NCBI GenBank assembly: GCA_018650465.1
Contig: JABIFY010000092.1
Coordinates: forward strand, 15,477-79,476
Reading direction: 5' to 3'
Length of the DNA stretch: 64,000 nt
Source: Alphaproteobacteria bacterium
Lineage (GTDB): Bacteria > Pseudomonadota > Alphaproteobacteria > UBA2966
This document shows positions 16,616-53,581 of this stretch, piece after piece; the first letter of the stretch is position 1; each line of letters begins with the position of its first letter. Position numbers and translations under genes: made by a program. A model generated the notes under the pieces. That model was not told the DNA's origin. It saw nothing but the letters and a program-made list of their open reading frames with translations, and searched no databases.

Positions 16616-17416
16616 TCAGCGACCCTTAAAGACGGGCGGGCGTTTTTCTACAAAAGCTTTGGCTGCTTCCTGATGATCTTCCGTCATGCCGCTGCGGGAA
16701 TGATGTAAGGCTTCCATATCCAGCATATCTCTTAAAGGCGCGCCACCTTCTGCGGCATTCAGATTACGTTTCATATAACGATAGGCGATCCGGGGACCCG
16801 CAGCCAGCCCTTCGGCAAGTCCCAGCGCTTCGGCCTCATATTCTGCGTCAGGAAATACATGATTGACCATGCCCAAGGTCAAGGCTTCGTCCGCCATCAC
16901 AAGTGCCGCTGTATAATAAAGTTCGCGCGCCTTGGCGGTACCAACCAGGTGGGTCAGGTAATAACTGCCACCGAAGTCACCAGAATAGCCAACTTTGGCA
17001 AAAGCCGTTGTGAATTTAGCCGATGCGGCAGCAATGCGCATGTCGCAGGAAAGTGCCAAGGAAAGCCCGGCACCGGCTGCGGCGCCACCGACCATGGCAA
17101 TAGTTGGCTTCGGCATTTCATGCAGCAGGCGGGATGTTTCCATTACGGCCCGCAATTGCTGGGTTTTTGCTTCAAGAGATTCAGCCTCAAATTCCTCGCC
17201 TGCGGCCATGGCCTTGACGTCACCGCCAGCACAAAAGGCACCACCGGCACCGGTGAGCACGACACAACCGATGGACTCATCAGCCGACAGACGGCCCAGT
17301 TTTTCCAGCATGGACAACAGCATTTCTGTGCTCATGGCGTTGCGCCGATCCGGGCGGTTCATGGTCAGGATGGCAACACCACCGCGAATTTCTTCCAATA
17401 GATGGTCGGTCATTTT
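16616..17416 (-). CDS. Enoyl-CoA hydratase/isomerase (crotonase family)
   Basis: Oxyanion-hole signature [12 protein letters not shown]. Start placed at the internal Met (MTDHLLEEI), which leaves an 8-nt gap to tesB instead of an overlap. Confidence 0.8.
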
Positions 17417-17423
17417 TTGTTCC

Positions 17424-18284
17424 TTATTTGTCGTGAAGCCGGGCGAGGCCTTCCTGGGTGACGGATGCAATCAGGATGCCCTCCCTGGAATAGATTTCGC
17501 CGCGATTAAAACCTCTGGCCCCGGAAGCACTGGGGCTGTCCTGGGCGTAGAGCATCCACTCGTCTGCCTTGAAGGCGCGATGAAACCACATGGCATGATC
17601 CAGGCTGGCCATTTGAATATTCTGGGTGAGGAACCCCAAACCGTGGGGTCCAAGACTGGTTTCCAACAACGACATGTCCGAGGCATAAGCCAAAACACAT
17701 TTGTGGATGCTCGGATCATCCGGCAGTTCATGGCGCGCCTTGAACCAGACGTTTTTGGCGGCGTCCCGGATGGGTGGGTCGGTTGGATCGTGTGGATTAA
17801 CCGGGCGTATTTCCACAGGACGTTCCCGTGAATACCAGGCCCTGTATTTCTCAGGGATTTTATCCATTATATCGGCACGAAGATCTTGTTCCGACTTCAG
17901 ATCTTCCGGCATGGGCACGTCCGGCATTGTACTTTGATGATCAAGGCCTTCTTCTGAAATCTGATAAGACACAGACATGCTGAAGATGGCTTTGCCGTGT
18001 TGGATGCCGTTTACCCGACGGGTGGTGAAGCTTTTGCCATCCCTGATCCGGTCGACGTCATATATAATGGGTATTTCCGGATCGCCTGGCCGCAAGAAAT
18101 AGCCATGCAGGGAATGGGCCTCCCGATCTTCAACAGTTCTTGAAGCCGCGACCAGTGCCTGGCCCAGAACCTGGCCACCAAAAACACGAACCATTCGTTC
18201 CTTGGGGCTAAAGCCACGAAACAGGTTTACTTCGATCTGTTCAAGGTCAAGCAGTCCAACCAGCTGGTCGAGTGGATCAGTCAT
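17424..18284 (-). CDS. tesB: Acyl-CoA thioesterase II
   Basis: LLDLEQIEVNLFRG...RVFGGQVLGQAL...DGKSF matches the TesB double hot-dog fold. Confidence 0.85.
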   Translation of the reverse strand: MTDPLDQLVGLLDLEQIEVNLFRGFSPKERMVRVFGGQVLGQALVAASRTVEDREAHSLHGYFLRPGDPEIPIIYDVDRIRDGKSFTTRRVNGIQHGKAIFSMSVSYQISEEGLDHQSTMPDVPMPEDLKSEQDLRADIMDKIPEKYRAWYSRERPVEIRPVNPHDPTDPPIRDAAKNVWFKARHELPDDPSIHKCVLAYASDMSLLETSLGPHGLGFLTQNIQMASLDHAMWFHRAFKADEWMLYAQDSPSASGARGFNRGEIYSREGILIASVTQEGLARLHDK

Positions 18285-18301
18285 TCAAAGGGCGTCCTTT
18301 A

Positions 18302-19882
18302 TCAACTGTTTTTCCAGTAAGGTTCCCGCAGTTCACGTTTGAGAATCTTGCCGATCGTGCTGCGCGGCAGTGTTTCTACAAACTCGATGCCCGACAACCG
18401 TTGTGCCTTGCCCAGTTTACTATTTGCCCAGGCCGTCAAATCCTCTGCCGATGCCTTGGCACCGGGTTCCGCAACAACCAGACCAAGCGGTGTTTCGCCC
18501 CACTGATCGGACGGAATACCAATGACCGCAATATCAGCAACATCCGGATGATCGGTCAGAACGGCTTCCAGATCGGCGGCATAGATATTAAAGCCGCCAG
18601 AAATGATCATATCCTTGATTCGATCCAGCAGGAACAAAAAGCCGTCTTCGTCAAACCGGCCCATGTCGCCTGTGCGGAAAAACGTAATACCCTCAGGGGA
18701 TTGCCACAGCATATCATCTGTCAGGTCCTGGCGTTTGTAATATCCGGCCATCATACCCTGCGACCGTCCGACAACTTCACCGATTTCACCTTGCGCCAAT
18801 TCATTGCCTTCAGCGTCGATAAGTCTGATGTCAGCGGTTTCAGCCGGCACGCCAACAGATTCCAGCTTGGTTGGAAAATCCGTGCAACTCAGGATCGTTG
18901 ATCCGCCGCCTTCTGTCAGGCCATAGATTTCCAGCATCTTGCCGGGCCAGCGGGCGACGATCTGTTGTTTGATGCCAATACGTAGCGGTGCACTTGTGGA
19001 AAACTTCAGCTCGTACGAAGACAGGTCGGTTTTGTCGAAATCTTCGTGGTCAAGCACACGCTGGTACTGAACCGGGACCAGCATGGCAGTGTTCACTTTT
19101 TCGGCTTCCGACAAACGAAGGAACTCATCGGCTTTGAACTTTTCCATCAAAACAACGGTTCCACCCCAGGCCAGCGTCGGTAGAGCCACGACCAGGGTGG
19201 TGTTTGAATAAAAAGGTGTCGACACCAGGGAAATGGTATTTTCATCGATGCCCGATACGCCAAAGCGTTCCACGTGGAATGCCCGCATGTCATGATTTTG
19301 CTGGATGCCTTTGGGTACGCCGGTAGTGCCCGACGAATAGATGATGTTGAAGCCGTAGTCGGGTTTTATTTCAATTTCAGGGTCGGCGTCATCAGCAGCA
19401 TCCCGCCAGGCAGTGAAATTCTGCCAGCCATCGGCTTCAAAATCCGCAGCAATGAGACCGTTTTGTATCATGTTTGGGAAATTTTGTCCGTCAGAAGCTA
19501 GCAAATTACGCATGTTTTCTGAGATCATCAGCACCCTGGAATCGGAGTCATTGATCATCACTTCAAGCTGTTCAGCCGACGCCATACCCGACAAAGGAAC
19601 AACACAAGCACCTGCTCTCAACGCGCCAACAAACATCTCCGCATAAGCCAGTGACGTCGACGCCAGCACGGCAACCTTGTCTTCAGGCTTGATCCCCATC
19701 CCGATCAAGGCGTTGGCGACCTGGTCAACATGACGGGCGAAATCCCTCCAGGAAGTCCGCTCACCTTTATAAATGATCGCCGGGTGATCACCACGCTCCC
19801 GGCCCATTCGGGCGATCTGGCCTGGAACGTCAGTGAATGCGGCGGCGCTGGAGCCATCCGTGGAAGCGTTGGATAAAGTCAT
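18302..19882 (-). CDS. Acyl-CoA synthetase (AMP-binding)
   Basis: YSSGTTGVPKG AMP-binding motif. C-terminal GKI...E ligase signature. Confidence 0.85.
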   Translation of the reverse strand: MTLSNASTDGSSAAAFTDVPGQIARMGRERGDHPAIIYKGERTSWRDFARHVDQVANALIGMGIKPEDKVAVLASTSLAYAEMFVGALRAGACVVPLSGMASAEQLEVMINDSDSRVLMISENMRNLLASDGQNFPNMIQNGLIAADFEADGWQNFTAWRDAADDADPEIEIKPDYGFNIIYSSGTTGVPKGIQQNHDMRAFHVERFGVSGIDENTISLVSTPFYSNTTLVVALPTLAWGGTVVLMEKFKADEFLRLSEAEKVNTAMLVPVQYQRVLDHEDFDKTDLSSYELKFSTSAPLRIGIKQQIVARWPGKMLEIYGLTEGGGSTILSCTDFPTKLESVGVPAETADIRLIDAEGNELAQGEIGEVVGRSQGMMAGYYKRQDLTDDMLWQSPEGITFFRTGDMGRFDEDGFLFLLDRIKDMIISGGFNIYAADLEAVLTDHPDVADIAVIGIPSDQWGETPLGLVVAEPGAKASAEDLTAWANSKLGKAQRLSGIEFVETLPRSTIGKILKRELREPYWKNS

Positions 19883-19907
19883 CTATCGAGAATTCCTATA
19901 GGGCACG

Positions 19908-21560
19908 TCAGGAGGATCGCAAACGATCAATCGTAGTATATGCAGAAATATGTTCAAGGCTGCTTTGGATGTTGATCAAGGCTGGCCCGGGATGCTCAAG
20001 GGCTTGTTGCAAGACCGGACCAATTTCATCGCTGTCAGTAACGGTCAAACCCAGGGCGCCATAAGCTGTTGCCATCATTGCAAAATCTGGATTATTCAAC
20101 ACCGTTGCTGAGACCCGTCCCGGGAAATGTTTTTCCTGATGGGCTCTGATCGTGCCGTAAGCACCATTGTTCGACAGCAATATTTTTATCGGTAATTCAT
20201 ATTGTACTGCCGTGGCCATTTCATTTCCCGTCATCATGAAACCACCATCCCCCACCAGGCAAATGACTTGCCGGTGTGGTTGGCGCAAGGCAGCTGCAAC
20301 GGCGGCAGGCACACCCATGCCCATGGCGCCAGCAACAGCGCCCAGCAGTGTGTGATCCTTGCCAAACATAAAGTGGCGATGAAGCCAACTGCCAAAGTTG
20401 CCGGCATCAGTAGCAATGACCGCGTCGTCGGCAATCTGTTTTTGTAGTTCCGCTATGACAAACCCAAAATCCAGCCCATCAGGGGCGGAAGACGCCGACC
20501 ACTCTGAAAGCTTTTTGGCGTGACTATTCAGGCGTTTGATCCATTCCTTGCGGCCCGCTGGAGGCGCCGGAACTGTATGTACACCAAGGGCTTGAACGAA
20601 CTCATTGCTTCGACAAATCAGGCCAAGCTCTGTCTCGTAAACCTTGCCCGGCACATAAGCGTCCGGGTAAATATGGACCAGAGGCTGGGCGGGTTCAGGG
20701 GCTTGAGGCAATACATAACCTTGTGTTGTTGCGTCGCCCAGGCGCGTGCCTAACGCAATGATCAGGTCCGCTTCTAACATGATATCGACTTGCGGTCGCG
20801 GAATGTTGTAACCCAGATAGCCACCGAAATTCGCATGATCATTCGGGAAAAGGTCCTGGTGTTTGAAGGAGGGAACAACAGATACGCCCCAGCTCTCCGC
20901 CATGGCCACAAGTTCTGGTTTCAGGCCAACGGTATCACCGCCAACAATAACAAGTGGACGAATGGAATTTGCAATTAGTTCAGCCACTTGCGCGACGTCA
21001 TCCTGAACCGGTGCCGGTACAATAACTTGCTGCTGCGGTTCCAGTTTGGCTTCAACCTCATCATCAAGCATGTCTTCCGGCAAGACAATGACAACCGGCC
21101 CCTGAGTAGGGGTTTTGGAAATCCGCACGGCGGCGGCAATGACTTCAGGCAGAGTTTCCGGATCAGTGACGGTATGAACCCATTTTGCCATGTCTTCAAA
21201 AGTTGTTTCGTAATCAACTTCCTGGAAAGCGCCACGCCCCAAATCATCACGTGCGACCTGACCAACAAAGAGGATCAAAGGTGCCGCATCCTGTTCAGCC
21301 GTGTGGACGGCAATAGAAGCGTTTGTCGCCCCTGGACCCCGGCTGACAAAGGCGACGCCTGGCTCGCCGGTTAGTTTGGCATCAGCAACAGCCATAAAAC
21401 CTGCACCACCTTCGTGACGGCAGGTAATAACATCAAAATTATTGGCAGATGCAATGGCGTCCAGGACAGGCAAATAGCTTTCGCCTGGCACGCAAAAACC
21501 CCTGTTCAGGTCATGATGTTGGAGGCAATCAATAAGAAGGTCGGCCGCGCGACGGGTCAT
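19908..21560 (-). CDS. Thiamine-diphosphate-dependent enzyme (acetolactate-synthase/oxalyl-CoA-decarboxylase-like fold)
   Basis: TPP N-terminal PYR domain (GFCVPGESYLPVLDAI...GPGATNASIAVHTA) and C-terminal PP domain (GDGGFMMTGNEMATA). Start taken at the internal Met (MTRRAADLL). Confidence 0.7.
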   Translation of the reverse strand: MTRRAADLLIDCLQHHDLNRGFCVPGESYLPVLDAIASANNFDVITCRHEGGAGFMAVADAKLTGEPGVAFVSRGPGATNASIAVHTAEQDAAPLILFVGQVARDDLGRGAFQEVDYETTFEDMAKWVHTVTDPETLPEVIAAAVRISKTPTQGPVVIVLPEDMLDDEVEAKLEPQQQVIVPAPVQDDVAQVAELIANSIRPLVIVGGDTVGLKPELVAMAESWGVSVVPSFKHQDLFPNDHANFGGYLGYNIPRPQVDIMLEADLIIALGTRLGDATTQGYVLPQAPEPAQPLVHIYPDAYVPGKVYETELGLICRSNEFVQALGVHTVPAPPAGRKEWIKRLNSHAKKLSEWSASSAPDGLDFGFVIAELQKQIADDAVIATDAGNFGSWLHRHFMFGKDHTLLGAVAGAMGMGVPAAVAAALRQPHRQVICLVGDGGFMMTGNEMATAVQYELPIKILLSNNGAYGTIRAHQEKHFPGRVSATVLNNPDFAMMATAYGALGLTVTDSDEIGPVLQQALEHPGPALINIQSSLEHISAYTTIDRLRSS

Positions 21561-25592: not shown

Positions 25593-25660
25593 ACCTTGCT
25601 TGTCGGCACAAATGCCTTACATCAGCTTGTCGTTGACAATTATCAAGCTGGATAGGGTAA

Positions 25661-26017
25661 ATGAAAGACGATACGGGCGGATATCCGCATGAAATTACCG
25701 TTGCGACTTTGGCCGCTGCACTGGAAGATATTGGTGGCCTCGATGCCACAAAAGTTACGCTGCTGGATGTACGTGAACAGGTCGAAGTACAAACCTGTGC
25801 CATGGCAGACTTCGTGCACATCCCCTTGATGGACGTACCGCGTGAGTTCGCGTCCTTGCCACGGGATCATGCACTTGTTGTTGTCTGCCACCACGGCATG
25901 CGCAGTGCCCAGGCCGTAGGCTTTTTACGCCAACAAGGTTTTGAAAATGCGATCAATCTGCAAGGCGGCATCGACGCCTGGGCCAGGCAGATCGACACCT
26001 CCATGCCGACCTACTAA
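25661..26017 (+). CDS. Rhodanese-like sulfurtransferase domain protein
   Basis: Active-site Cys loop VVVCHHGMRSAQA followed by GGIDAW. Confidence 0.8.
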   Translation: MKDDTGGYPHEITVATLAAALEDIGGLDATKVTLLDVREQVEVQTCAMADFVHIPLMDVPREFASLPRDHALVVVCHHGMRSAQAVGFLRQQGFENAINLQGGIDAWARQIDTSMPTY

Positions 26018-26032
26018 GCCATCCCAAACAGA

Positions 26033-26548
26033 TTAAACGTTGCCGCCAGCCTCGCTGTAGGCCATGGATAGTTCTGCGTCGTCTTCCGGCTCCAGAATTT
26101 GCTCCAGGGCGGGCAGAAATCCCATTTCTTCCTTTTGAATGTGGAAGACTTCACGCTCAACCAGTTCCAGTCCCTGGGCATGAAATGCTGACCAACTGGC
26201 ATCATCAAATCCATTTTCCAAGGCGTCTTTGGCCTTCGCAAGTAAGGCTTCAGCCAGTGGTCTGATGATCTCGTGTTCTTCCTTCAGCATGGTTGGAATG
26301 CCAGGGTCAACATATTCTGAGAATGTGGGAAATAACCTGCTTTCTTCAAAGGCAAAATGCCCTTTGACATCTGCTTCCAGAACGGCAATCAGTCCCGTTA
26401 ACAGGCTGCGCCAGGTTGGGTCATCTGCTGTGGGGACAGCGCTGGCACCCTGGCGGTTCAGATCAGTTTCCAGTTTTTCCAACATGGCGAGCGTCGCCAC
26501 GTGATCGCGGTGCAGGGCCTTGGTAATACTCAACTCGAATTCAAACAT
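26033..26548 (-). CDS. Hemerythrin HHE cation-binding domain protein
   Basis: H..H...E...HFAFEE..LFP...EH His/Glu spacing. Confidence 0.65.
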   Translation of the reverse strand: MFEFELSITKALHRDHVATLAMLEKLETDLNRQGASAVPTADDPTWRSLLTGLIAVLEADVKGHFAFEESRLFPTFSEYVDPGIPTMLKEEHEIIRPLAEALLAKAKDALENGFDDASWSAFHAQGLELVEREVFHIQKEEMGFLPALEQILEPEDDAELSMAYSEAGGNV

Positions 26549-26571
26549 TCTTCAATCCACTTTTGGGGACG

Positions 26572-27870
26572 TTAGTTTTCTGCTGCGGTCCGGTGATAGG
26601 TAAAAAAGCTTCGCAGCACTGAGAAACAGAACCAGGCAAAGCCAGCCGCACCGATAAATCCAACCAACCCGGCAACCCTCAATCCATCCGGTTGATCCAG
26701 CGCAATACTGGTTGCCCCCACAACAATGGCGAGGCCATGACAGATGGCATGCAGTTTCAGGGGGGAGCCTTGGGCCAATTCGGATAACCTTGGTGGTTTG
26801 TGATTTCGTTTCGACATATTCATTGCTGCCAAAAATGGCACAATCCGCTGCAACATGCCCTTGATGTAGGTCAAGAGCCAGCCAAACAGCAACACAAAGC
26901 CAAACAGGGCAGGTCCCTGATCACCGAGCAGGTCGAGCGCCAGGGCGAAGCCACAAATAATACTGAGCAACATCATGCCCCAGGCACCTTTAATCATGAA
27001 AAAGGAAAGTCCCAGCTTTTTACGCATGCCATTTTCCAGGCACCAGACCATGCCTTTAATATGAAGAGCTGCACCCGCCAGCCCGGCAACAGCGGCTAGG
27101 GCGATCAACTCAGGCAGGGCAAAATTCAATCCGGCAATCGTGCCCGCCAAGCCTGTCACCAACAGGGTGTAAGAAACCCAACCTTGCTTGCCTGGGGCAT
27201 TTTGTGACAACGCAAACATTGGCACCAGAATGTTGCCAAACCCCACTGCCAGAAACCCCATAAACCCGCAGGCCGCCAGCACCATGTGCTGGGCCGCGAC
27301 GCTCTCGTGATCCATCAGCCAGGCAAATTCAAAATCAAGTACCAGGGCAACCCCCAGTCCCAACAATCCAAATAATGCGGCCATGGAAATCCATGCATGG
27401 GCAACGGCCAGTTTCAAAGTTGTCGAACGCCACAGCAGGCTGGTGATGACATGCAGGAAGACCATCAAGGTCAAGGTTATTAATAACGCGCCACAAGACA
27501 TCAAAAACTGATTGCTTAGAAAAAAACCTGACAACAAACACGCAAGTCCCGGCAGAAACAGCCAGATCAACAGTTTGGCGGGCAACAGGCTTTTGTGGCC
27601 AAGGCCGGTGGCGACAGGCAGCAGCTGGATTGCAGCACCTATGGCCGTTGCCACCATAACGCCCAATGTCAACAAATGCAGGACAGCCAACACAGGTCCC
27701 GGCCCGCCGGCGTAGGATGGAATGTCATCGGCAGTATAGATCACGCCCAGCCAGACACCTGCGTGACAAACCACCGCGACCAGAAAAAACACGAAGGGCA
27801 GCATGGGCGGCAACAGCCTTTGTTGCGCCCCCATCAAAATCATGCCCGGTAGCTGTGGCGCCTTTTTCAT
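26572..27870 (-). CDS. Polytopic membrane protein of unknown function (His-rich TM helices; possibly NnrS-like)
   Basis: About 12 hydrophobic segments with conserved-looking intramembrane His (HLLTLGV, AHAWISMAAL, HMVLAACGF, HIKGMVW). The family was not identified. Confidence 0.45.
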   Translation of the reverse strand: MKKAPQLPGMILMGAQQRLLPPMLPFVFFLVAVVCHAGVWLGVIYTADDIPSYAGGPGPVLAVLHLLTLGVMVATAIGAAIQLLPVATGLGHKSLLPAKLLIWLFLPGLACLLSGFFLSNQFLMSCGALLITLTLMVFLHVITSLLWRSTTLKLAVAHAWISMAALFGLLGLGVALVLDFEFAWLMDHESVAAQHMVLAACGFMGFLAVGFGNILVPMFALSQNAPGKQGWVSYTLLVTGLAGTIAGLNFALPELIALAAVAGLAGAALHIKGMVWCLENGMRKKLGLSFFMIKGAWGMMLLSIICGFALALDLLGDQGPALFGFVLLFGWLLTYIKGMLQRIVPFLAAMNMSKRNHKPPRLSELAQGSPLKLHAICHGLAIVVGATSIALDQPDGLRVAGLVGFIGAAGFAWFCFSVLRSFFTYHRTAAEN

Positions 27871-28124
27871 GCTGATAATCTTTTCAGGTGCAGTTCAATA
27901 TTCCCGGGGGCTTCATTCAGATAATCCCAATCCCAGTCGATTTCATTAAGCTCCGGAAACAAATAAACCGGGTCTCTCTCCAGACTGACGATTACCTCCG
28001 TTGCATCCGGATTTGCTTCGATCCAGCCCATGATGGCGACAAAGGGACCGGGCGGCTCCATACCGATCGTATTGATACGAGGCCGTCCATCCTCACCGGT
28101 GCTGATTTGAGCTTCGATTGTCAT
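27867..28124 (-). CDS. Small conserved hypothetical protein (about 85 aa; possibly DUF2249-like)
   Basis: Start taken at the internal Met (MTIEAQ...). Its stop overlaps the start of the membrane-protein gene by 4 nt (ATGA). The upstream approximately 90 codons of the ORF-track version look non-coding. Confidence 0.4.
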   Translation of the reverse strand: MTIEAQISTGEDGRPRINTIGMEPPGPFVAIMGWIEANPDATEVIVSLERDPVYLFPELNEIDWDWDYLNEAPGNIELHLKRLSA

Positions 28125-28496
28125 TTTTTTGCCATTATTCTGATTTAGTACTGCAGCATTACGAGAGCATTTCTGACTTCGACGGAAACGCTGCGATGCG
28201 TATTGCTCATGCAGGACGCCTGATAGATATGTGGTGGCGATTCCGTCAAGACCGAAATCGCCATAGTTGGTGAAGCTGGAGAGATTGCCTTGCCTTTGGT
28301 CATGAAAGCACCATTTTCCAATGTACGATAGGCTGGATTTGACCGCCGGAATGAATCTTATTATACCTTCGCCCCGGATTGATCCGGTTTTGCACAAAAT
28401 TTAAGATTTGTCGTGTAGATAGAGTGTCCAAATTCACAGGAATGTCGGGAGCCGCTCTTGCTTCCCATACAGATATTGATGTTACGGAGTTTTGAA

Positions 28497-29084
28497 ATGC
28501 GTGCTTTTTTTACGGCCTTATTGCTATTGATCATTGCTGTCCCGCAAGCAATTGCCGGTGATTTTGAAGATGGCATGGAAGCCTACCGCGCCAAGGATTA
28601 TGGGAAAGCCAGGATTTTGTGGCTGCCTTTGGCACAAGGTGGTCATACTTTTGCGATGAATAATGTCGGCATGATGTACAAAAAGGGCAACGGCGTTCCC
28701 CAGGACCACAAAAAGGCCGTAAAATATTTCAAACAATCATCTGATCAAGGGTTTAGCTTGGCCAGCTATAATCTGGCAGCCATGTATCAATCTGGAAAAG
28801 GCGTAAAGAAAAATCGGAAAGCTGCCTTTAAATGGATGCTCAAAGCTGCCGAGAAACGATTTGGCAAAGCGCAAATCAAGCTTGGACGATGGTACAAAAT
28901 TGGCTTTGGTGTGAAAAAGAGCAAGGTCAAGGCGCTGGAATGGTTTTTGATCGCCGAAAATAACTCCAAGGGAAGACTTGCCGAGTTGGCCGCAAAGGAA
29001 ATAAAAAAAGTGAAAACAATCCTTAGCGAAGCAGAAATTGCCAAGGCGACAGATGCTGCTGAGTCGTTTGTTCCAGCTTCCTGA
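28497..29084 (+). CDS. Secreted Sel1-repeat (TPR-like) protein
   Basis: Signal peptide MRAFFTALLLLIIAVPQAIAG. At least four Sel1 repeats (AMNNVGMMYKKGNGVPQDHKKAVKYFKQSSDQG; AMYQSGKGVKKNRKAAFKWMLKAAE). Confidence 0.8.
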   Translation: MRAFFTALLLLIIAVPQAIAGDFEDGMEAYRAKDYGKARILWLPLAQGGHTFAMNNVGMMYKKGNGVPQDHKKAVKYFKQSSDQGFSLASYNLAAMYQSGKGVKKNRKAAFKWMLKAAEKRFGKAQIKLGRWYKIGFGVKKSKVKALEWFLIAENNSKGRLAELAAKEIKKVKTILSEAEIAKATDAAESFVPAS

Positions 29085-29915: not shown

Positions 29916-30017
29916 TTACTTGTTTCCCCATTTTTGGTCACATTCTGTTAACTACGTTCTGATATGCACAAGTAGTGATATTTTAGAATAGCCACGAATC
30001 CAATATAGAATTCGACA

Positions 30018-31286
30018 TTGGATTCCACAATGAGCGTGCGACCAGAAGCCAGGGGTGCGGACAGGATGTCTGACGAAGACGAAGTCATTGACGACGAAGC
30101 TGTTGCGGCGGAGTGGGAAGCCTCGATGTTGGCGGAAGCCGGCGGGGACGAAGAGGAAGGCGTGGACGACGACGCTGTTGCCGCCGAATGGGAAGCCCAG
30201 ATGGCGGCCGAAGGCGGTGGCGATGAAGGTGGCGGTGATGACGATGCCATGGCCGAGGAGTGGGCCGCTATGGCCGACGGCGATGGTGATGGCGAAGATG
30301 AAGACGATGACATGGGGTCGACCCAGTCGACGCGTGTTCTTGACCAGGACGAAATCGACAGCCTGCTCGGCTTTGACAATGATGGTGACGGCGAGGAAGA
30401 AACTTCCGGCATCAAGGCGATCATCAACAGTGCGCTGGTTTCATACGAACGACTTCCCATGCTGGAGATCGTTTTTGACCGCCTGGTCCGGTTGATGTCG
30501 ACGTCCTTGCGTAACTTTACCTCAGATAATGTTGAAGTTTCGCTGGATAACATCACGTCAATTCGATTTGGCGATTACCTCAATTCCATTCCCTTGCCAG
30601 CTATTCTCAGTGTATTCCGAGCGGTTGAATGGGATAACTTCGGTTTGATCGTTGTTGATTCAGCCATGATCTATTCGATTGTGGATGTGCTGCTTGGCGG
30701 ACGTCGAGGCACTGCGGCTATGCGTGTTGAAGGTCGTCCATACACGACCATTGAACGAAACCTGGTTGAGCGCCTGGTGACCGTTGTGCTGGCCGATATG
30801 GGTGCGGCATTTGAGCCCCTTAGCCCTGTTAGCTTTAATTATGACCGCCTGGAAACCAATCCACGCTTTGCAACGGTTGCGCGACCTGCAAACGCGGCTA
30901 TTTTGATCAAGCTTCGGGTTGATATGGAAGACCGCGGCGGTCGTTTGGAAATAATGTTGCCATACGCCACGCTTGAGCCCATTCGTGAATTGCTGTTGCA
31001 GCAGTTCATGGGCGAGAAATTTGGCCGGGATACAATCTGGGAAAGCCACCTGGCAACAGAGCTCTGGTCGACCGAAATCTCTATTGAAGCTGTGCTTGAC
31101 GAACAAACAATGTCTTTGACAGATGTTATGAATTTTTCGGTTGGTGAAACCTTGATGTTGAACAGTGCGCCAGACGACCAGATTGAGTTGCGCTGCGGCG
31201 GCATTCCCCTGATGACCGGTAAGATGGGCCGGGTTGGGAATTCAATTTCAATTCGTGTGGACAATGGTATCGAATCGCGAAACTGA
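30018..31286 (+). CDS. fliM: Flagellar motor switch protein FliM with acidic tandem-repeat N-terminal extension
   Basis: Colinear with E. coli FliM (CheY-binding LDQDEIDSLL, RLPMLEIVFDRL, VDVLLGGRRG, IMLPYATLEPIRELL, C-terminal SpoA/FliN-like LRCGGIPLMTGKMG). It is preceded by about 100 aa of Asp/Glu-rich repeats (DDEAVAAEWEA x3). Confidence 0.85.
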   Translation: MDSTMSVRPEARGADRMSDEDEVIDDEAVAAEWEASMLAEAGGDEEEGVDDDAVAAEWEAQMAAEGGGDEGGGDDDAMAEEWAAMADGDGDGEDEDDDMGSTQSTRVLDQDEIDSLLGFDNDGDGEEETSGIKAIINSALVSYERLPMLEIVFDRLVRLMSTSLRNFTSDNVEVSLDNITSIRFGDYLNSIPLPAILSVFRAVEWDNFGLIVVDSAMIYSIVDVLLGGRRGTAAMRVEGRPYTTIERNLVERLVTVVLADMGAAFEPLSPVSFNYDRLETNPRFATVARPANAAILIKLRVDMEDRGGRLEIMLPYATLEPIRELLLQQFMGEKFGRDTIWESHLATELWSTEISIEAVLDEQTMSLTDVMNFSVGETLMLNSAPDDQIELRCGGIPLMTGKMGRVGNSISIRVDNGIESRN

Positions 31287-49952: not shown

Positions 49953-50825
49953 ATGATTAATACATTGACTGGGAGGGAAGTTCTGTTGCGTTATTTCCTG
50001 CCGGATACGGTTGCTGAGGCGACCGCCGGACTAGCTGAAAAAAATTATCGGATCGTTGCGGGCGGCACGGATTTTTACCCCGCCCTGGCTGATCAGCCTG
50101 TGCGCGACGACGTCATGGATATTTCCGGCCTGCAAGCTTTGCGCGGCATCGCCCGGGAAACCAAACACACCCGCATTGGTGCCCTTGCCACCTGGACAGA
50201 TATTGCCCGGGCGGAGCTGCCAAATAAATTCCGCGGCCTGCAACTGGCGGCGCGTGAAGTGGGGGCTTTGCAAATACAGAATGTGGCGACCGTTGCAGGC
50301 AATCTTTGCAATGCCTCGCCCGCGGCGGACGGCGTGCCGCCCCTGTTGACCCTGAATGCGCAAGTCGAAATCTCCGCTGCGAACGGCCAGCGTGTTTTAC
50401 CGCTGGATCAGTTCATCCTTGGCAACAGGCGCACGGCGCTGGAGCCAAATGAAATGCTGACCGCCATTTTGATCCCGAATGATGCAGAAGCGGCAAACAG
50501 TCATTTTATGAAACTGGGCTCCCGGCAATATCTGGTTATCTCCTACGTCATGGTGGCGACTTTGCTGGAAGCAGACGATTCCGGCATTATCACCCAGGCC
50601 CGGGTTTCGGTTGGCGCCTGTTCCGAGGTGGCGTGCCGTCTTGCCGATCTTGAAGCGGCACTCGTTGGGCAACCCTTGACAACGACCAGTGCTGTCGTGC
50701 GGCCCGACCATCTGTCCATCCTTGCGCCCATCGATGATATTCGGGCGTCGGCTGATTATCGCCTGGCGGCAGCGTTGGAATATACCAGGCGCAGCCTTTC
50801 GGCCTGTACGGAGGGTCTGTTATGA
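49953..50825 (+). CDS. Xanthine-dehydrogenase-family FAD-binding subunit (CoxM/XdhB-like)
   Basis: RIVAGGTDFYP FAD-binding motif and C-terminal CO-dehydrogenase flavoprotein domain. Confidence 0.8.
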   Translation: MINTLTGREVLLRYFLPDTVAEATAGLAEKNYRIVAGGTDFYPALADQPVRDDVMDISGLQALRGIARETKHTRIGALATWTDIARAELPNKFRGLQLAAREVGALQIQNVATVAGNLCNASPAADGVPPLLTLNAQVEISAANGQRVLPLDQFILGNRRTALEPNEMLTAILIPNDAEAANSHFMKLGSRQYLVISYVMVATLLEADDSGIITQARVSVGACSEVACRLADLEAALVGQPLTTTSAVVRPDHLSILAPIDDIRASADYRLAAALEYTRRSLSACTEGLL

Positions 50826-53581
50826 CATCACCTGGTACGAGTGGGTCTGTCGACTTTTCCCTGAACGGAAAACCGGTTTCAGTTTCCGTTGATCCCACGC
50901 GTCGGCTGTCACAAGTGCTGCGCGAAGACCTTGGTCAGACCGGCACCAAAATAGGTTGTAATGCGGGCGACTGCGGGGCCTGTACGGTGTTGGCCGATGG
51001 CCTTTCGGTTTGTGCCTGCATGGTACCTGTCGGGCGGTTGCAGGGTGCGCAAATCCAGACCGTGGAGGGATTGGCTGAAGCGGGCATTCCCAATCGACTG
51101 CAAAAAGCATTTTTGCATTTTGGCGCCGCCCAGTGTGGCATTTGTACGCCGGGTATGTTGATGGCGGCCACCGCATTGCTGGCGGAAAACGCCCGTCCCG
51201 ATGAAGCCCAGGTAAAAGACGCGCTGGGCGGTGTGCTTTGCCGCTGTACAGGATATCGCAAGATCATCCAGGCGGTGATGGCTGCCCATGATTTTGATGC
51301 CGAACCTTTGCGGGCTGAAACCGGCACGGCAGTGGGCACTCGCCTTAACCGGCTTGATGGTGAAGAAAAGGTTCTCGGCACAGATTTGTTTGGTGATGAC
51401 GTTGCTGGACAAGGTGCACTCGTCCTCAAGGTTATTCGCTCACCTTATCATCGGGCGTCATTTTCCTTCGGGGATACAGGCGGGTTACTGGTGACAACAC
51501 CTGGCCTGATCAAAATCCTGACCGCCAGCGATATTCCGGGCAGAAATTTACATGGCGTTATTCCGGATACTGTCGATCAACCAGTCTTTGCCGTGGCTGA
51601 AACCCGTTTCAAGGGCGAGGCGATTGCTGCCGTGGTTGGGGATGCCGACGCCGTGGACAAGTTTGATGTGTCGGACTTTCCCGTGACCTGGACGGAACGA
51701 CCCGCGTACCTGACGCCGGAAAAGGCTTTGGCTGACAATGCACCCCTGATACATGCCAACCGGCCCGGAAATATCCTGATGAACGGCATCGTGCAGCGCG
51801 GTGATCTGGCGGCCGGCTTCGCGCACAAAGACGCCACGATTGCCGAAGGCGATTTCATCACCGGCTTTGTTGAGCACGGTTATATTGAACCGGAAGCGGG
51901 CCTGGCCCAACGTGTGGGCGACCGACTTGAAATGCATGTTTGCACCCAGTCGCCCTATATGGATCGCGATGACACGGCAGCTATTCTTGGTATCGCCAAA
52001 GAAGATGTGCGCATCATACCGACGGCGGTTGGCGGTGGCTTTGGCAGCAAGCTTGATCTCTCGGTCCAGCCCTATATCGCACTGGCCGCCTGGTTGCTGG
52101 ATCGCCCTGTGCGCATGACCTACAGCCGCCAGGAAACCATGATGTCGACAACCAAACGACATCCTTCAGCCATCAAGGCCAGAATCTCTGCAGACAAACA
52201 GGGCAAGCTGTTATCCATGGATTTCAACGGCGTGTTCAACACCGGGGCCTATGCTTCGTGGGGACCGACGGTTGGCAATCGGGTGCCGGTACATGCCTCG
52301 GGTCCTTATATATATGATGCCTATCGCGCCCGCAGTCAGGCGGTGCATACCCATTGCGTGCCGTCCGGTGCCTTCCGGGGATTTGGTGTGCCGCAATCTT
52401 CCATTGTGCAGGAAACCCTGTTTGATGAACTGGCGGACAAGCTGGCCATTGATCGGCTGGACTTTCGTTTGCGCAACGCCCTGGTGAACGGTGCAACGAC
52501 GGTTTGTGGCCAGGTCTTCAGCGAAGGTGTGGGCATCAAGGATTGCCTGCAAAGTCTGAAACCCCATTGGGACCGGGCCTTGTCTGAAGCTGATGGTTTC
52601 AATGCCGCATCAGATGGCAGCTTGCGACGCGGTGTGGGTGTGGCGGGCATGTGGTACGGCTGTGGCAACACGTCGCTGCCCAATCCGTCGACCATCAAGG
52701 TTGCCATTCGCAATGATGGCCAGGTGGTTCTGTTCCAGGGTGCTGTGGATGTGGGGCAGGGGGCCAACACCGTTATCACACAAATCTGTGCTGATGCCGC
52801 AGGCCTGGACATCCTCAATTTTTCTCTTGTCTATGGTGATACCGATCTAACGGCGGACGCGGGTAAAACCTCAGCCTCACGCCAAACCTTTATCAGTGGC
52901 AAGGCGTCATACCTCGCGGGCCAGGATTTGCGCAAAAAAATCCTGCGTATGGTCAATGCCAGTGAAGATGCGCGCCTCGCCATTAATGGCAGCAAAATTA
53001 CCGCCATCGATACAGCCGGGCGAAATGATATCGATCTGGCTGCCTTGCCGGCGGATGAAGATGGATTTGTCTTTACTGGTGAAGGAACCTTTGATCCACC
53101 TACCGTGGCCCTCGATGAAAATGGCCAGGGTGAACCCTATGCGGTTTTTGGATATGGCGCACATATGATGGAACTGGAAGTCGATACCCGCCTGGGCACG
53201 GTACGCTTGATCAAGCTGACGGCCGCCCATGATGTGGGCAAAGCCATTAACCCAACCCTGATTGAAGGCCAGATCGAAGGCGGTGCAGCCCAGGGACTGG
53301 GCCTCGCTCTGATGGAAGAATTTGTGCCGGGCCGCACCGAAAATCTGCACGATTATTTGATTCCGACCATTGGCGATGTGCCCGAGGTGGAATCGATCCT
53401 TGTTGAAGTGCCCAACGCACATGGTCCTTACGGGGCCAAAGGCATAGGTGAACAAGTTCTGATCCCGACTGCGCCAGCCATCCTCAATGCCATCCGACAT
53501 GCCACGGGTGCGGTTTTACGGGATATGCCCGCAACGCCAGAAAAAGTGCGCAATGCAGTTTTGCGGGCGAAAGGGAATTAG
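50822..53581 (+). CDS. Xanthine-dehydrogenase-family fused [2Fe-2S] + molybdopterin-binding subunit
   Basis: N-terminal plant-type and second 2Fe-2S Cys motifs (CNAGDCGACTV; CGICTPG). Large aldehyde-oxidase/XDH Mo-binding body. 4-nt overlap with the FAD subunit. Confidence 0.8.
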   Translation: MTSPGTSGSVDFSLNGKPVSVSVDPTRRLSQVLREDLGQTGTKIGCNAGDCGACTVLADGLSVCACMVPVGRLQGAQIQTVEGLAEAGIPNRLQKAFLHFGAAQCGICTPGMLMAATALLAENARPDEAQVKDALGGVLCRCTGYRKIIQAVMAAHDFDAEPLRAETGTAVGTRLNRLDGEEKVLGTDLFGDDVAGQGALVLKVIRSPYHRASFSFGDTGGLLVTTPGLIKILTASDIPGRNLHGVIPDTVDQPVFAVAETRFKGEAIAAVVGDADAVDKFDVSDFPVTWTERPAYLTPEKALADNAPLIHANRPGNILMNGIVQRGDLAAGFAHKDATIAEGDFITGFVEHGYIEPEAGLAQRVGDRLEMHVCTQSPYMDRDDTAAILGIAKEDVRIIPTAVGGGFGSKLDLSVQPYIALAAWLLDRPVRMTYSRQETMMSTTKRHPSAIKARISADKQGKLLSMDFNGVFNTGAYASWGPTVGNRVPVHASGPYIYDAYRARSQAVHTHCVPSGAFRGFGVPQSSIVQETLFDELADKLAIDRLDFRLRNALVNGATTVCGQVFSEGVGIKDCLQSLKPHWDRALSEADGFNAASDGSLRRGVGVAGMWYGCGNTSLPNPSTIKVAIRNDGQVVLFQGAVDVGQGANTVITQICADAAGLDILNFSLVYGDTDLTADAGKTSASRQTFISGKASYLAGQDLRKKILRMVNASEDARLAINGSKITAIDTAGRNDIDLAALPADEDGFVFTGEGTFDPPTVALDENGQGEPYAVFGYGAHMMELEVDTRLGTVRLIKLTAAHDVGKAINPTLIEGQIEGGAAQGLGLALMEEFVPGRTENLHDYLIPTIGDVPEVESILVEVPNAHGPYGAKGIGEQVLIPTAPAILNAIRHATGAVLRDMPATPEKVRNAVLRAKGN

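Follow-up and report, generated by a model that had tools for sequence, protein, structure and literature searches.

An alphaproteobacterial operon pairing a membrane protein of the heme-copper oxidase fold with a DUF2249 protein and a hemerythrin

Three adjacent genes on the minus strand of the window (the whole 64,000-nucleotide stretch of DNA analyzed here) form an operon that encodes a small DUF2249 protein, a 12-helix membrane protein with the fold of heme-copper oxidase subunit I, and a hemerythrin-like di-iron protein, and this trio is widely conserved across Alphaproteobacteria. The operon is most likely an NO or low-oxygen stress module of the kind outlined by earlier computational work. 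In the specific form that we favor, to which we give a probability of roughly 45%, the three proteins would form a module that faces the cytoplasm and serves in redox reactions or protection under NO or low O2, with a non-catalytic relative of the heme-copper oxidases at its core.

Operon structure and conservation

The genes are arranged on the minus strand in the order DUF2249 gene (28124-27867), 12-TM gene (27870-26572), and hemerythrin gene (26548-26033). The layout proposed in a sequence-only reading of this DNA, with three open reading frames on one strand, an ATGA coupling, and a 23-nt gap, is correct at each of these positions: the DUF2249 gene ends in a TGA that shares the ATGA at 27870-27867 with the start codon of the 432-aa gene, and 23 nt separate the end of the 432-aa gene (26572) from the start of the 171-aa gene (26548). 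We place the start of the 85-aa reading frame at the ATG at 28124, which is kept in an 81%-identical ortholog and in 4 other close homologs. A longer version in the open reading frame list, beginning at a TTG at 28397, was rejected because the extension is not conserved.

More than 500 homologs of the membrane protein were found. Relatives occur in 445 alphaproteobacterial species-level genomes, including those of cultivable Rhodopseudomonas and Magnetovibrio, and sequence clustering divides the core of the family into at least 185 clusters and the wider group into more than 2,000. The small reading frame, which might have turned out to lack conservation in syntenic loci, lies directly upstream of the membrane gene in 78 of 82 loci examined, with one more locus truncated by a contig end, and the commonest spacing between the two genes is a 4-nt overlap. 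A hemerythrin gene follows directly downstream in 50 of these loci, and another 22 have one in the 6-kb flank. Homolog numbers and conserved gene order together rule out a chance arrangement of open reading frames and confirm that the three-gene operon is real.

In the window, the operon is surrounded by rhodanese, MFS, DUF427, EAL, Sel1, and SDR genes, and a sequence search found no local paralogs in the window or in the fetched loci. Horizontal acquisition is unsupported, the G+C content of the operon being that of its surroundings. A functional tie to the convergent rhodanese gene, as a pairing of a TusA-like protein with a rhodanese, was rejected because the DUF2249 protein contains no cysteine and because no rhodanese gene follows in either relative inspected at this position, where the next gene encodes a cNMP-binding channel (L001/L002) or an SDR protein (L003).

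Genomic context in relatives

Some relatives of the operon are found among genes of denitrification. On pSymA of S. meliloti, a paralogous module with the order DUF2249, membrane protein, 2xDUF2249, and FeS assembly sits between nirK-nnrS and hemN-norB, 2 kb from nnrS, and the gene that comes next after the paralog is of the FeS_assembly_P (DUF59) type. A literature search with the locus tags of this module returned no matches. In 4 Rhodopseudomonas loci, the module comes after nosD...apbE. The annotated neighbors in the window include no NO-related gene, and NnrS, NorB, and NirK were found within 6 kb in none of the 82 loci (0/82), observations that count against the NO or low-O2 reading.

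Another kind of neighborhood recurs in part of the family. In about 24 to 32 of the 82 loci, the genes immediately upstream of DUF2249 form a xanthine-dehydrogenase-family trio (2Fe-2S, Mo, and FAD subunits). A GNAT gene comes next in 37 loci, BadFG and HGD-D genes are nearby in 24 and 22, respectively, and 27 loci have an Rrf2 regulator gene within 6 kb. That about 30 of the 82 loci adjoin xanthine-dehydrogenase-family and BadFG/HGD-D genes also counts against the NO or low-O2 reading, suggesting a different or broader role. The operon might then be an accessory of O2-sensitive anaerobic metabolism, providing O2 scavenging or electron transfer for Mo hydroxylases and ATP-dependent BadFG/HGD-D-type reductases, with the window copy as a free-standing version. 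Locus L003, where a hemerythrin gene lies next to ferredoxin and BadFG genes, fits such a role as well. However, this context is confined to sub-clades of Hyphomicrobiales and Rhodobacterales; neither the window and its closest relatives nor the loci in the nos and pSymA contexts show it. The BadFG genes, moreover, are on the opposite strand, and adjacency without common orientation is weak evidence. We therefore consider a role of this kind unlikely.

Fold and histidines of the membrane protein

The second gene (26572..27870, minus strand) encodes a protein of 432 amino acids, for which an AF2 model gives 12 transmembrane helices, as had been predicted, with both the N- and C-termini in the cytoplasm. 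Structure comparison identifies the fold as that of subunit I of the heme-copper oxidases and NO reductases, with 12 helices in three-fold pseudo-symmetry, built of 3 homologous 4-TM units. The top structural matches are CcoN of the cbb3 oxidase (3mk7_A) and NorB of cNOR (4xyd_A and 3o0r_B), at a sequence identity of about 12%. PDB sequence searches with the 432-aa sequence and with a family profile found no match, and the protein has no match in Pfam, including NnrS and COX1 (PF00115). Local COX1 matches appear in distant relatives only, for instance in P0388 with 36 bits over about 55 residues.

The label "His-rich" given to this protein from its sequence overstates the case, since 12 of its 432 residues (2.8%) are histidines, but 6 of these are conserved: H36, H65, H195, H270, H374, and H378. 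They lie in TM1, TM2, TM6, TM8, and, for the last 2, TM11, in agreement with the earlier placement of histidines inside predicted helices. H65 (TM2) is present in 206 of 206 family members and H195 (TM6) in 205 of 206, in a set that takes in members only 21% to 26% identical to the window protein as well as the pSymA paralog, and once these are included, the 2 residues are the sole invariant histidines. They sit at equal depth, 6 to 7 residues from the periplasmic ends of their helices. From this position, H65 and H195 are predicted to be the bis-His ligands of a single low-spin b-type heme near the periplasmic side, which would make the protein not an oxidase but a membrane cytochrome.

The other 4 histidines (H36, H270, H374, and H378) are conserved in this clade only and are left unaccounted for by the single-heme model. 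Three of them, H270 in TM8 and H374/H378 in TM11, cluster in the cytoplasmic half of the protein, 5 to 9 residues from the inner surface. Such a cluster could be taken for part of an iron or metal homeostasis device in which the membrane protein moves or chelates metal through His-lined helices and the hemerythrin serves as an iron store or sensor. The FeS_assembly_P gene next to the pSymA paralog would fit this, as would the relation of some oxidase homologs to cellular iron homeostasis that is attributed to Pei et al. 2014 in a later summary (PMC11218638). The cytoplasm-side histidines, however, are missing from the wider family, no transporter with this fold is known, and metal-uptake genes do not recur among the neighbor clusters in the flanks of the 82 loci, so that we regard a metal homeostasis device as quite improbable.

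Comparison with heme-copper oxidases and NO reductases

The window protein and the catalytic subunit of oxidases and NO reductases share the 12-TM core fold and its three-fold pseudo-symmetry. In the oxidases, TM2, TM6, and TM10 are the metal-ligand helices, and the universal histidines of the window protein fall in 2 of these, TM2 and TM6. The full sets of ligands differ, with the histidines of the oxidases in TM2, 6, 7, 7, 10, and 10 and those of the window protein in TM1, 2, 6, 8, 11, and 11, and the alignment contains no conserved histidine in TM7 or TM10 of the family. Because the His-His pair of TM7 and the His-x-His of TM10, the histidines by which oxidases hold CuB/FeB and the two hemes, are absent, the window protein has neither a binuclear center nor the canonical heme pair.

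The partners differ as well. Oxidases work with a cytochrome c or CuA partner subunit, whereas the window protein is accompanied by a soluble DUF2249 protein and a hemerythrin. An electron-entry partner (CoxB, CcoO, or NorC) is absent from the operon, and proteins of these types are not among the recurrent neighbor clusters of the 82 loci in a general, untargeted clustering. These comparisons bear on whether the membrane protein could itself be catalytic, as a novel kind of terminal oxidase or nitric oxide reductase. Its best structural matches are the catalytic subunits of exactly these enzymes, and the number of conserved histidines, 6, is the same as in oxidases, but they are in the wrong helices, 3 of them lie near the cytoplasmic side and away from the position of the binuclear center, and both a partner subunit and a Pfam COX1 match are lacking. 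Catalysis within the membrane protein is accordingly the least credible of the readings considered here, and we think it very improbable.

Relationship to NnrS and other oxidase homologs

NnrS, a product of NO regulons, is a 12-TM protein that contains heme and copper. It resembles the window protein in its 12 helices, its length of about 400 amino acids, and its occurrence in Proteobacteria, and by eye both NnrS and this family carry a conserved histidine followed by G...P...TG-type motifs in the helices that bear metal ligands. The patterns of conserved histidines differ, with H67/H69, H172, H262, H284, H312, and H334 in an NnrS alignment and those in TM1, 2, 6, 8, and 11 in this family. As reported in the literature, nnrS is a member of NO regulons (PMC1274295), and V. 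cholerae requires it to resist NO (PMC3345576).

The sequence-only reading saw no clear match to NnrS, and the window protein indeed gives no Pfam NnrS (PF05940) hit. Among 37 relatives, however, 13 match this profile weakly at E<=1 (best E 2.4e-7), with P0078 the only one above the gathering score (30.9 bits versus 28), and because of these matches we regard the 432-aa protein as a remote relative of NnrS. An unrelated transporter family, an outcome that would have spoken against the earlier reading, is not what the protein maps to. Direct profile comparison with hhalign did not reach significance, giving E 0.37 against one NnrS sequence and E 0.034 against a low-diversity NnrS alignment, and a comparison of the 4-TM units one by one with NnrS was uninformative.

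The best HMMER alignment to NnrS is shifted by 4 helices, pairing TM5-12 of the family with TM1-8 of NnrS. When the three 4-TM units are re-ordered and Pfam is scanned again, the alignments cover the whole NnrS or COX1 profile, at scores about equal to those of the original order (30.4 versus 30.9, 41.5 versus 36.0, and 24.3 versus 25.8 bits). These scores are compatible with a displacement by one unit and are not decisive. In sequence alignments, the family seems to be out of register with NnrS and COX1 by one 4-helix unit, which would mean either circular permutation or independent assembly of the units.

The 432-aa protein is an NnrS-like "HCO-homology" protein, a class that has already been described computationally. 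Pei, Li, Kinch, and Grishin (2014, Protein Sci 23:1220) reportedly defined HCO-homology families of 12-TM proteins made of three 4-TM evolutionary units. Most of these proteins are said to have 2 conserved histidines, as possible ligands of a single heme, and a fold similar to MAPEG trimers, and their genes are said to be linked to DUF2249, denitrification, and NO detoxification. The three 4-TM units, the 2 universal histidines, the DUF2249 link, and the MAPEG-like fold are all seen in the family of the window protein. The association with DUF2249 is found in the 78 of 82 loci and in natural gene fusions, and that with denitrification or NO genes is supported by the pSymA and Rhodopseudomonas nos contexts; the window is without such denitrification or NO-gene neighbors. 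The 4 extra histidines and the near-obligatory hemerythrin may be undescribed for the HCO-homology families. A link of DUF2249 to oxidase homologs and to hemerythrins had been drawn before (PMC11218638).

The DUF2249 protein

The first gene of the operon (27867..28124, minus strand) encodes a cytoplasmic protein of 85 amino acids. A Pfam scan, proposed as a check of the suspicion that this was a DUF2249 protein, returned DUF2249 (PF10006) with 34.4 bits against a gathering cut-off of 29.5. The protein has a TusA/YeeD-like fold. TusA itself carries a CPxP motif with the cysteine that bears the persulfide. The 85-aa protein lacks this active-site cysteine of TusA/SirA (PF01206), has no cysteine at all, and shows instead a conserved EPPxP stretch just ahead of the first helix. 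With no cysteine and no counterpart of CPxP, a sulfur relay by this protein is excluded. In some relatives, natural fusions join DUF2249 to the cytoplasmic N-terminus of the membrane protein, and in several close relatives of the operon, the single-domain form is replaced by tandem-DUF2249 proteins.

DUF2249 proteins have been encountered in nitrate respiration elsewhere. DUF2249 genes of Haloferax are induced under denitrification (PMC11218638), and Thermus DrpA and DrpB are DUF2249 proteins acting in nitrate respiration, DrpA consisting of a single DUF2249 and DrpB, which is membrane-associated, of DUF1858 and 2 DUF2249 domains (PMC6282519). DrpA is similar to the window protein in its small size and in the overlap of its gene with the next, and it occurs in a context of respiratory and N-oxide genes. 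The Drp operon of Thermus thermophilus, unlike that of the window, contains neither an oxidase-fold membrane protein nor a hemerythrin.

Both Drp proteins affect how the nar and dnr operons are expressed (PMC6282519), and a sensor or regulatory module has to be weighed here too, in which the hemerythrin or the heme would sense O2 or NO and DUF2249 would relay the signal to transcription, as proposed for DrpA/DrpB. The tandem-DUF2249 proteins of the close relatives have a DrpB-like length, and Rrf2 regulator genes are found near 27 of the 82 loci, in keeping with such a role. Yet neither the operon itself nor any fusion in the relatives checked supplies an output domain (DNA-binding, kinase, cyclase, or other). 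DrpA is reported to be periplasmic (PMC6282519), whereas DUF2249 in this family is found fused to a cytoplasmic terminus, and the conserved histidines of DrpA homologs (PMC11218638) are unmatched in the DUF2249 of this operon, whose homolog alignment contains no conserved histidine. On balance, we doubt that the operon is a sensor.

The hemerythrin

The third gene (26033..26548, minus strand) encodes a cytoplasmic, hemerythrin-like di-iron protein of 171 amino acids that matches Pfam Hemerythrin (PF01814) with 63 bits and E 4e-17. A complete set of putative di-iron ligands (H13/H16, H64-x3-E68, H92, and H136-x3-E140) is conserved at 98% to 100% in 73 operon-linked homologs, in keeping with the di-iron hemerythrin recognized earlier. 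The four-helix hemerythrin-like domain and the His/Glu di-iron ligands are shared with YtfE/RIC and NorA-type proteins. YtfE/RIC proteins differ in having a ScdA_N domain, which this hemerythrin lacks, and in size and motifs.

Identity with RIC/YtfE was rejected: the score of 17.4 bits against TIGR03652, covering the C-terminal part of the model only, is far below the cut-off of 204.7, and the ScdA_N domain is missing. The match between the hemerythrin and YtfE in the PDB has an E value of 0.2. That the hemerythrin is not a RIC/YtfE protein by these thresholds, like the E value of 0.034 in the NnrS profile comparison, counts against the NO or low-O2 reading.

Upstream region

The operon is preceded by a non-coding region (28125..28457, minus strand) that it shares with a divergent Sel1-repeat gene (28458-29084, plus strand) and that probably holds a promoter and a long leader. 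A candidate -10 box, TATAAT, can be read at 28365-28360 on the minus strand, while a consensus scan of the region found no sigma-70 consensus promoter and no terminator of note, and no Rfam family was found in the leader or elsewhere in the window. Alignment with the orthologous region of locus L004 reveals islands of conservation, among them a leader block, TCATGACCAAAGGCAAGGCAATC (28283..28305, minus strand), that differs by 1 base in L004, where the surrounding intergenic DNA has diverged and is about 100 nt shorter. Within the block, at 28303, lies the start ATG of a short upstream open reading frame, which begins MTKGK(A/E)I and is 52 aa long in the window, 10 aa long in L004, and in frame with DUF2249 in P0389.

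Perfect FNR/FixK-type boxes precede the operon in at least 9 relatives; in 6 of them, boxes of the form TTGAY-N4-ATCAA lie 63 to 73 nt upstream of DUF2249, and in others they lie farther upstream. The looser pattern TTG-N8-CAA occurs in 20 of 74 upstream regions of relatives, against a background of about 0.08 per region. A motif scan of the region upstream of the window's own operon found no FNR/NnrR-type box, which is a further observation counting against the NO or low-O2 reading.

Proposed function

The likeness to NnrS/DUF2249/hemerythrin-type modules of NO or O2 stress that the sequence-only reading had suggested is supported by the DUF2249 match, the hemerythrin, and the remote kinship with NnrS; the role in NO or O2 itself we infer from genomic context. 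In the stress module that we favor, DUF2249 would act as an adaptor that docks on the cytoplasmic face of the membrane protein, by analogy with the TusA-like YeeD (TsuB) on YeeE (TsuA). The hemerythrin would be the soluble working part and bind NO or O2 or, alternatively, might repair or buffer iron centers in the manner of YtfE/RIC and NorA, which are di-iron proteins too. Through the membrane cytochrome, the hemerythrin would be connected to the respiratory chain, which would supply or accept electrons, and the physiological role, as reported for NnrS, would be to shield iron-dependent metabolism under NO or low-O2 stress.

A bolder possibility gives the clade-specific histidines a part in electron transfer. 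A second redox or metal site at H270 and H374/H378 could, together with the heme at H65/H195, form a transmembrane electron wire that feeds the di-iron hemerythrin, with DUF2249 docking, so that the whole would amount to an NO (or O2) reductase split into 2 components. We hold this to be a long shot. If it were true, a di-iron protein in the cytoplasm would carry out the chemistry and the oxidase-like subunit would only conduct electrons through the membrane, an arrangement that, to our knowledge, has not been described for the heme-copper oxidase superfamily; only in that event would the operon embody a new principle.

Knowledge of the heme-copper oxidase fold comes almost wholly from NO reductases and from oxidases that pump protons. 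NnrS and the other homology families, which are its non-catalytic relatives, occur widely in contexts of NO and denitrification, but essentially no biochemistry on them is known. The present family offers a clean handle on such relatives, with a high-confidence model, 2 universal histidines, 2 fixed soluble partners, and natural fusions. Solving the role of the trio would give a function to DUF2249, a domain of thousands of proteins that is induced in denitrifying archaea and bacteria, and would clarify how NnrS-type proteins protect against NO. The practical gain would be a better annotation of genes for N-oxide and low-oxygen stress in marine and soil Alphaproteobacteria.

A three-gene operon on the minus strand

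Three ORFs are tightly packed on the minus strand, from 28124 down to 26033, an arrangement already described by the sequence-only reading and borne out by the ORF coordinates. The first encodes 85 aa (ATG 28124 to TGA 27867) and is a DUF2249 protein by Pfam (34.4 bits against a cut-off of 29.5), its stop overlapping the start of the second in an ATGA. The second, a 432-aa membrane protein (27870-26572), is followed after 23 nt by a 171-aa protein (26548-26033) that was taken for a hemerythrin and is recognized as such by Pfam (Hemerythrin, 63 bits). The block forms a self-contained unit, since it lies between a rhodanese gene that converges on it (25661-26017) and a Sel1-repeat gene that diverges from it (28458-29084); its G+C content is that of its surroundings. 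The start at ATG 28124 is kept in an 81%-identical orthologue and in other close homologues; the longer mechanical ORF of the DUF2249 gene extends to TTG 28397, and this extension is not conserved.

Nearby, at 30018-31286 on the plus strand, lies a gene for a FliM/FliN_C flagellar switch protein with an unusual N-terminal extension of ~130 aa, very acidic and with repeated AVAAEWEA-x-M-x-AE-GGDE-like units. Antisense to it runs a long ORF (29948-30556) that looks like a shadow of this gene.

An oxidase fold with two invariant histidines

Scanning the 432-aa protein against Pfam and NCBIfam gave no family match, in keeping with the early impression that it does not clearly match NnrS (PF05940). 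It has more than 500 homologues, none of them named, with an identical sequence in a marine alphaproteobacterial MAG and relatives in 445 species-level genomes. Where a class is named, the best 80 loci listed are almost all from Alphaproteobacteria, including Rhodospirillales, Hyphomicrobiales, Rhodobacterales, Sphingomonadales, and other orders. In a profile search of 1.84 billion representatives, the number of clusters rose from 185 at E ≤ 1e-30 to 2,115 at E ≤ 1e-3, and we therefore see a tight family nested in a much larger one.

An AF2 model built from an alignment of 37 sequences (pLDDT 91.3, pTM 0.91) has 12 TM helices, and Foldseek searches with this model support the fold of heme-copper oxidase and NOR subunit I. 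Since 382 of the 432 residues align sequentially, the twelve helices pair one to one with those of the oxidase fold. Loops assigned to the cytoplasm hold 11 K/R and outside loops hold none, which indicates the oxidase topology, with the N- and C-termini both inside. Three 4-helix units within the protein resemble each other detectably (hhalign E = 2e-5, 5e-5, and 5e-3).

From the initial description as a "His-rich" 12-TM protein, the twelve helices stand and the richness in histidine does not: only 12 of the 432 residues are His, and six of these are conserved. Counted over 206 full-length relatives, these are H65 in TM2 (206), H195 in TM6 (205), H378 in TM11 (193), H270 in TM8 (179, with mostly Tyr in the remainder), H374 in TM11 (174), and H36 in TM1 (169). 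H65 and H195 are the sole invariant histidines in an alignment that includes 21-26%-identical members and a Sinorhizobium meliloti paralogue. H65 is 6 residues and H195 7 residues away from the periplasmic end of its helix, and in oxidases the metal ligands sit on helices TM2, TM6, and TM10. On the cytoplasmic side, H270, H374, and H378 are set 5-9 residues in from the ends of TM8 and TM11.

In oxidases and NORs, the metal-holding histidines are found on TM2, TM6, TM7 (two), and TM10 (two). The family has no conserved His in TM7 or TM10. The membrane protein shares the fold and is most probably not an oxidase; that it is a true new oxidase or NOR is very improbable. The simplest reading would be one bis-His low-spin heme by the outer face, together with a feature of the inner half that is peculiar to this clade, perhaps a second site or residues of a proton path. 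A second site would suit a two-site transmembrane electron wire supplying a soluble di-iron NO/O2 reductase, an arrangement that we consider quite doubtful.

Relationship to NnrS, oxidases, and HCO-homology proteins

Weak Pfam NnrS matches were found in 13 of 37 family members, one of which (homologue P0078) passes the threshold of 28 with 30.9 bits; the alignment pairs TM5-12 of the family with NnrS TM1-8. Distant members match Pfam COX1 (PF00115) locally, their own TM2-3 aligning with profile positions 347-400, which we take to be the TM10-11 region with the heme histidines. With the three units re-ordered, the alignments extend over the whole NnrS and COX1 profiles, and the scores stay about the same. 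An hhalign comparison with a low-diversity NnrS alignment gave a match that was not significant and a register that was unshifted. On these comparisons, the family is a remote relative of NnrS and the oxidases, with a possible displacement of its sequence register by one unit.

The "HCO-homology" proteins of Pei, Li, Kinch, and Grishin in 2014 reportedly include NnrS and other three-unit 12-TM proteins, and are said to have mostly two conserved histidines, to be tied to DUF2249, denitrification, and NO detoxification, and to resemble MAPEG trimers. PMC11218638 gives a summary of that work. Our family fits this description. Since such NnrS-related, DUF2249-linked oxidase homologues have been described computationally since 2014, this is not a new kind of system; the family is a new, uncharacterized addition to that class.

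DUF2249 and hemerythrin partners

Across 82 non-redundant loci, a DUF2249 gene lies immediately upstream on the same strand in 78, so that the small ORF, whose conservation had been a check set for the first interpretation, is retained at syntenic loci. The commonest spacing is a 4-nt overlap, as in the window, and in some relatives DUF2249 is fused to the N-terminus of the membrane protein. The next gene downstream encodes a hemerythrin in 50 loci, and 22 more have one elsewhere within 6 kb. The ligands H13/H16, H64-x3-E68, H92, and H136-x3-E140 occur in 98-100% of 73 operon-linked homologues, and the hemerythrin retains a full di-iron set. That the module, with its di-iron protein, serves as a metal-homeostasis device is improbable. 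Assignment of the hemerythrin to RIC/YtfE was rejected, as it falls below the family thresholds.

In some close relatives (about 50% identity), a tandem-DUF2249 protein of 190-285 aa, sometimes with an extra N-terminal region, replaces the single-domain one (loci L006 2289-2867, L008, L010, L011 5140-5997, L012 5183-5995, and L013). In Thermus, nitrate respiration is modulated by the DUF2249 proteins DrpA and DrpB (PMC6282519). The tandem proteins are like DrpB in length and layout; Pfam finds no DUF1858 in them at E ≤ 0.001. A DrpAB-like sensor is a conceivable function for the module, and one we regard as unlikely.

Genomic context of the module

No NO-related genes are among the neighbours of the window operon, and NnrS, NorB, and NirK are found within 6 kb in 0 of the 82 loci. 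On S. meliloti pSymA, a paralogous module lies between nirK-nnrS and hemN-norB (17400-20103, minus strand, in locus L084, which spans pSymA 670000-715000). Its four genes encode a DUF2249 protein (155 aa); a 452-aa homologue of the window's membrane protein, without a Pfam match and linked by phmmer at E < 1e-5 to 35 of the loci; a protein with two DUF2249 domains, the second of which also matches Pfam TusA; and an FeS_assembly_P (DUF59) protein. A literature search on the likely locus tags gave no match, and the module is apparently uncharacterized. In four Rhodopseudomonas loci, the module comes after nosD...apbE. Denitrifying Haloferax strongly induces its DUF2249 genes (PMC11218638). The nnrS gene is a member of NO regulons, and Vibrio cholerae requires it to resist NO (PMC1274295, PMC3345576).

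A different setting is seen in about 30 Hyphomicrobiales and Rhodobacterales loci (L076 2003-12647; similarly L003, L016, L020, L039, L044, and others), where a xanthine-dehydrogenase-family trio (2Fe-2S, Mo, and FAD subunits) immediately precedes the module and a GNAT gene comes after it. Close by are BadFG/HGD-D-type (benzoyl-CoA-reductase-like) genes in divergent orientation, together with genes for a ferredoxin and an Rrf2 regulator. With such neighbours, the module might serve oxygen-sensitive aromatic or Mo-enzyme metabolism as an accessory or as an O2 scavenger, a role to which we give a low probability.

About 22 kb from the operon, at 49953-53581 on the plus strand, two ORFs resemble by eye a xanthine-dehydrogenase-family enzyme, the enzyme type adjoining the module in other genomes. 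The first would be an FAD-binding subunit and the second a fused 2Fe-2S and Mo subunit with a GCNAGDCGACTV motif, also seen by eye.

Upstream boxes and operon leader

No FNR/NnrR-type box was found upstream of the window operon. Six Rhodospirillales-type relatives have perfect FNR/FixK boxes (TTGAY-N4-ATCAA) 63-73 nt upstream of DUF2249, and others have them farther upstream; by our estimate, chance alone would yield about 0.1 perfect boxes in the 20 kb scanned. The window itself has a perfect FNR-type box, TTGACAATTATCAA, at 25633-25646, 15 nt before the rhodanese ATG (25661) and too close for the classical activating position if translation does start at that ATG. Another perfect match (26861-26874), inside the membrane-protein coding sequence, is probably due to chance.

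A 23-nt block of the operon leader, TCATGACCAAAGGCAAGGCAATC (28283-28305, minus strand), is nearly unchanged in the 81%-identical orthologue (L004), in which the remaining intergenic DNA has diverged and is about 100 nt shorter. A short ORF starting in this block (28303-28145, MTKGK(A/E)I...) has 52 aa in the window and 10 aa in L004, and is in frame with DUF2249 in homologue P0389. The block could be a leader peptide, a regulator, or an RNA element; an Rfam search of the leader returned no family.

A proposed function

The proposal of an NnrS/DUF2249/hemerythrin-type NO or O2 stress module was essentially right, and the finding is genuine. Our favoured reading, to which we give a probability of roughly 0.45, is a non-catalytic membrane cytochrome acting with DUF2249 and hemerythrin under NO or low-O2 stress. 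The membrane protein would be an oxidase-fold cytochrome with one heme on H65/H195 and without a catalytic centre. On the cytoplasmic side, DUF2249 would dock as its adaptor and the di-iron hemerythrin would be the NO- or O2-reactive, or iron-repairing, part. The membrane protein would couple the hemerythrin to the membrane redox chain, with a presumed direction of electron flow, and NO or low O2 would be the physiological trigger for a protective role. The finding is of value because the family is well defined and widespread and has no Pfam model of its own, and because it offers a confidently modelled structure, a minimal set of ligands, fixed partners, and carriers that can be cultivated.
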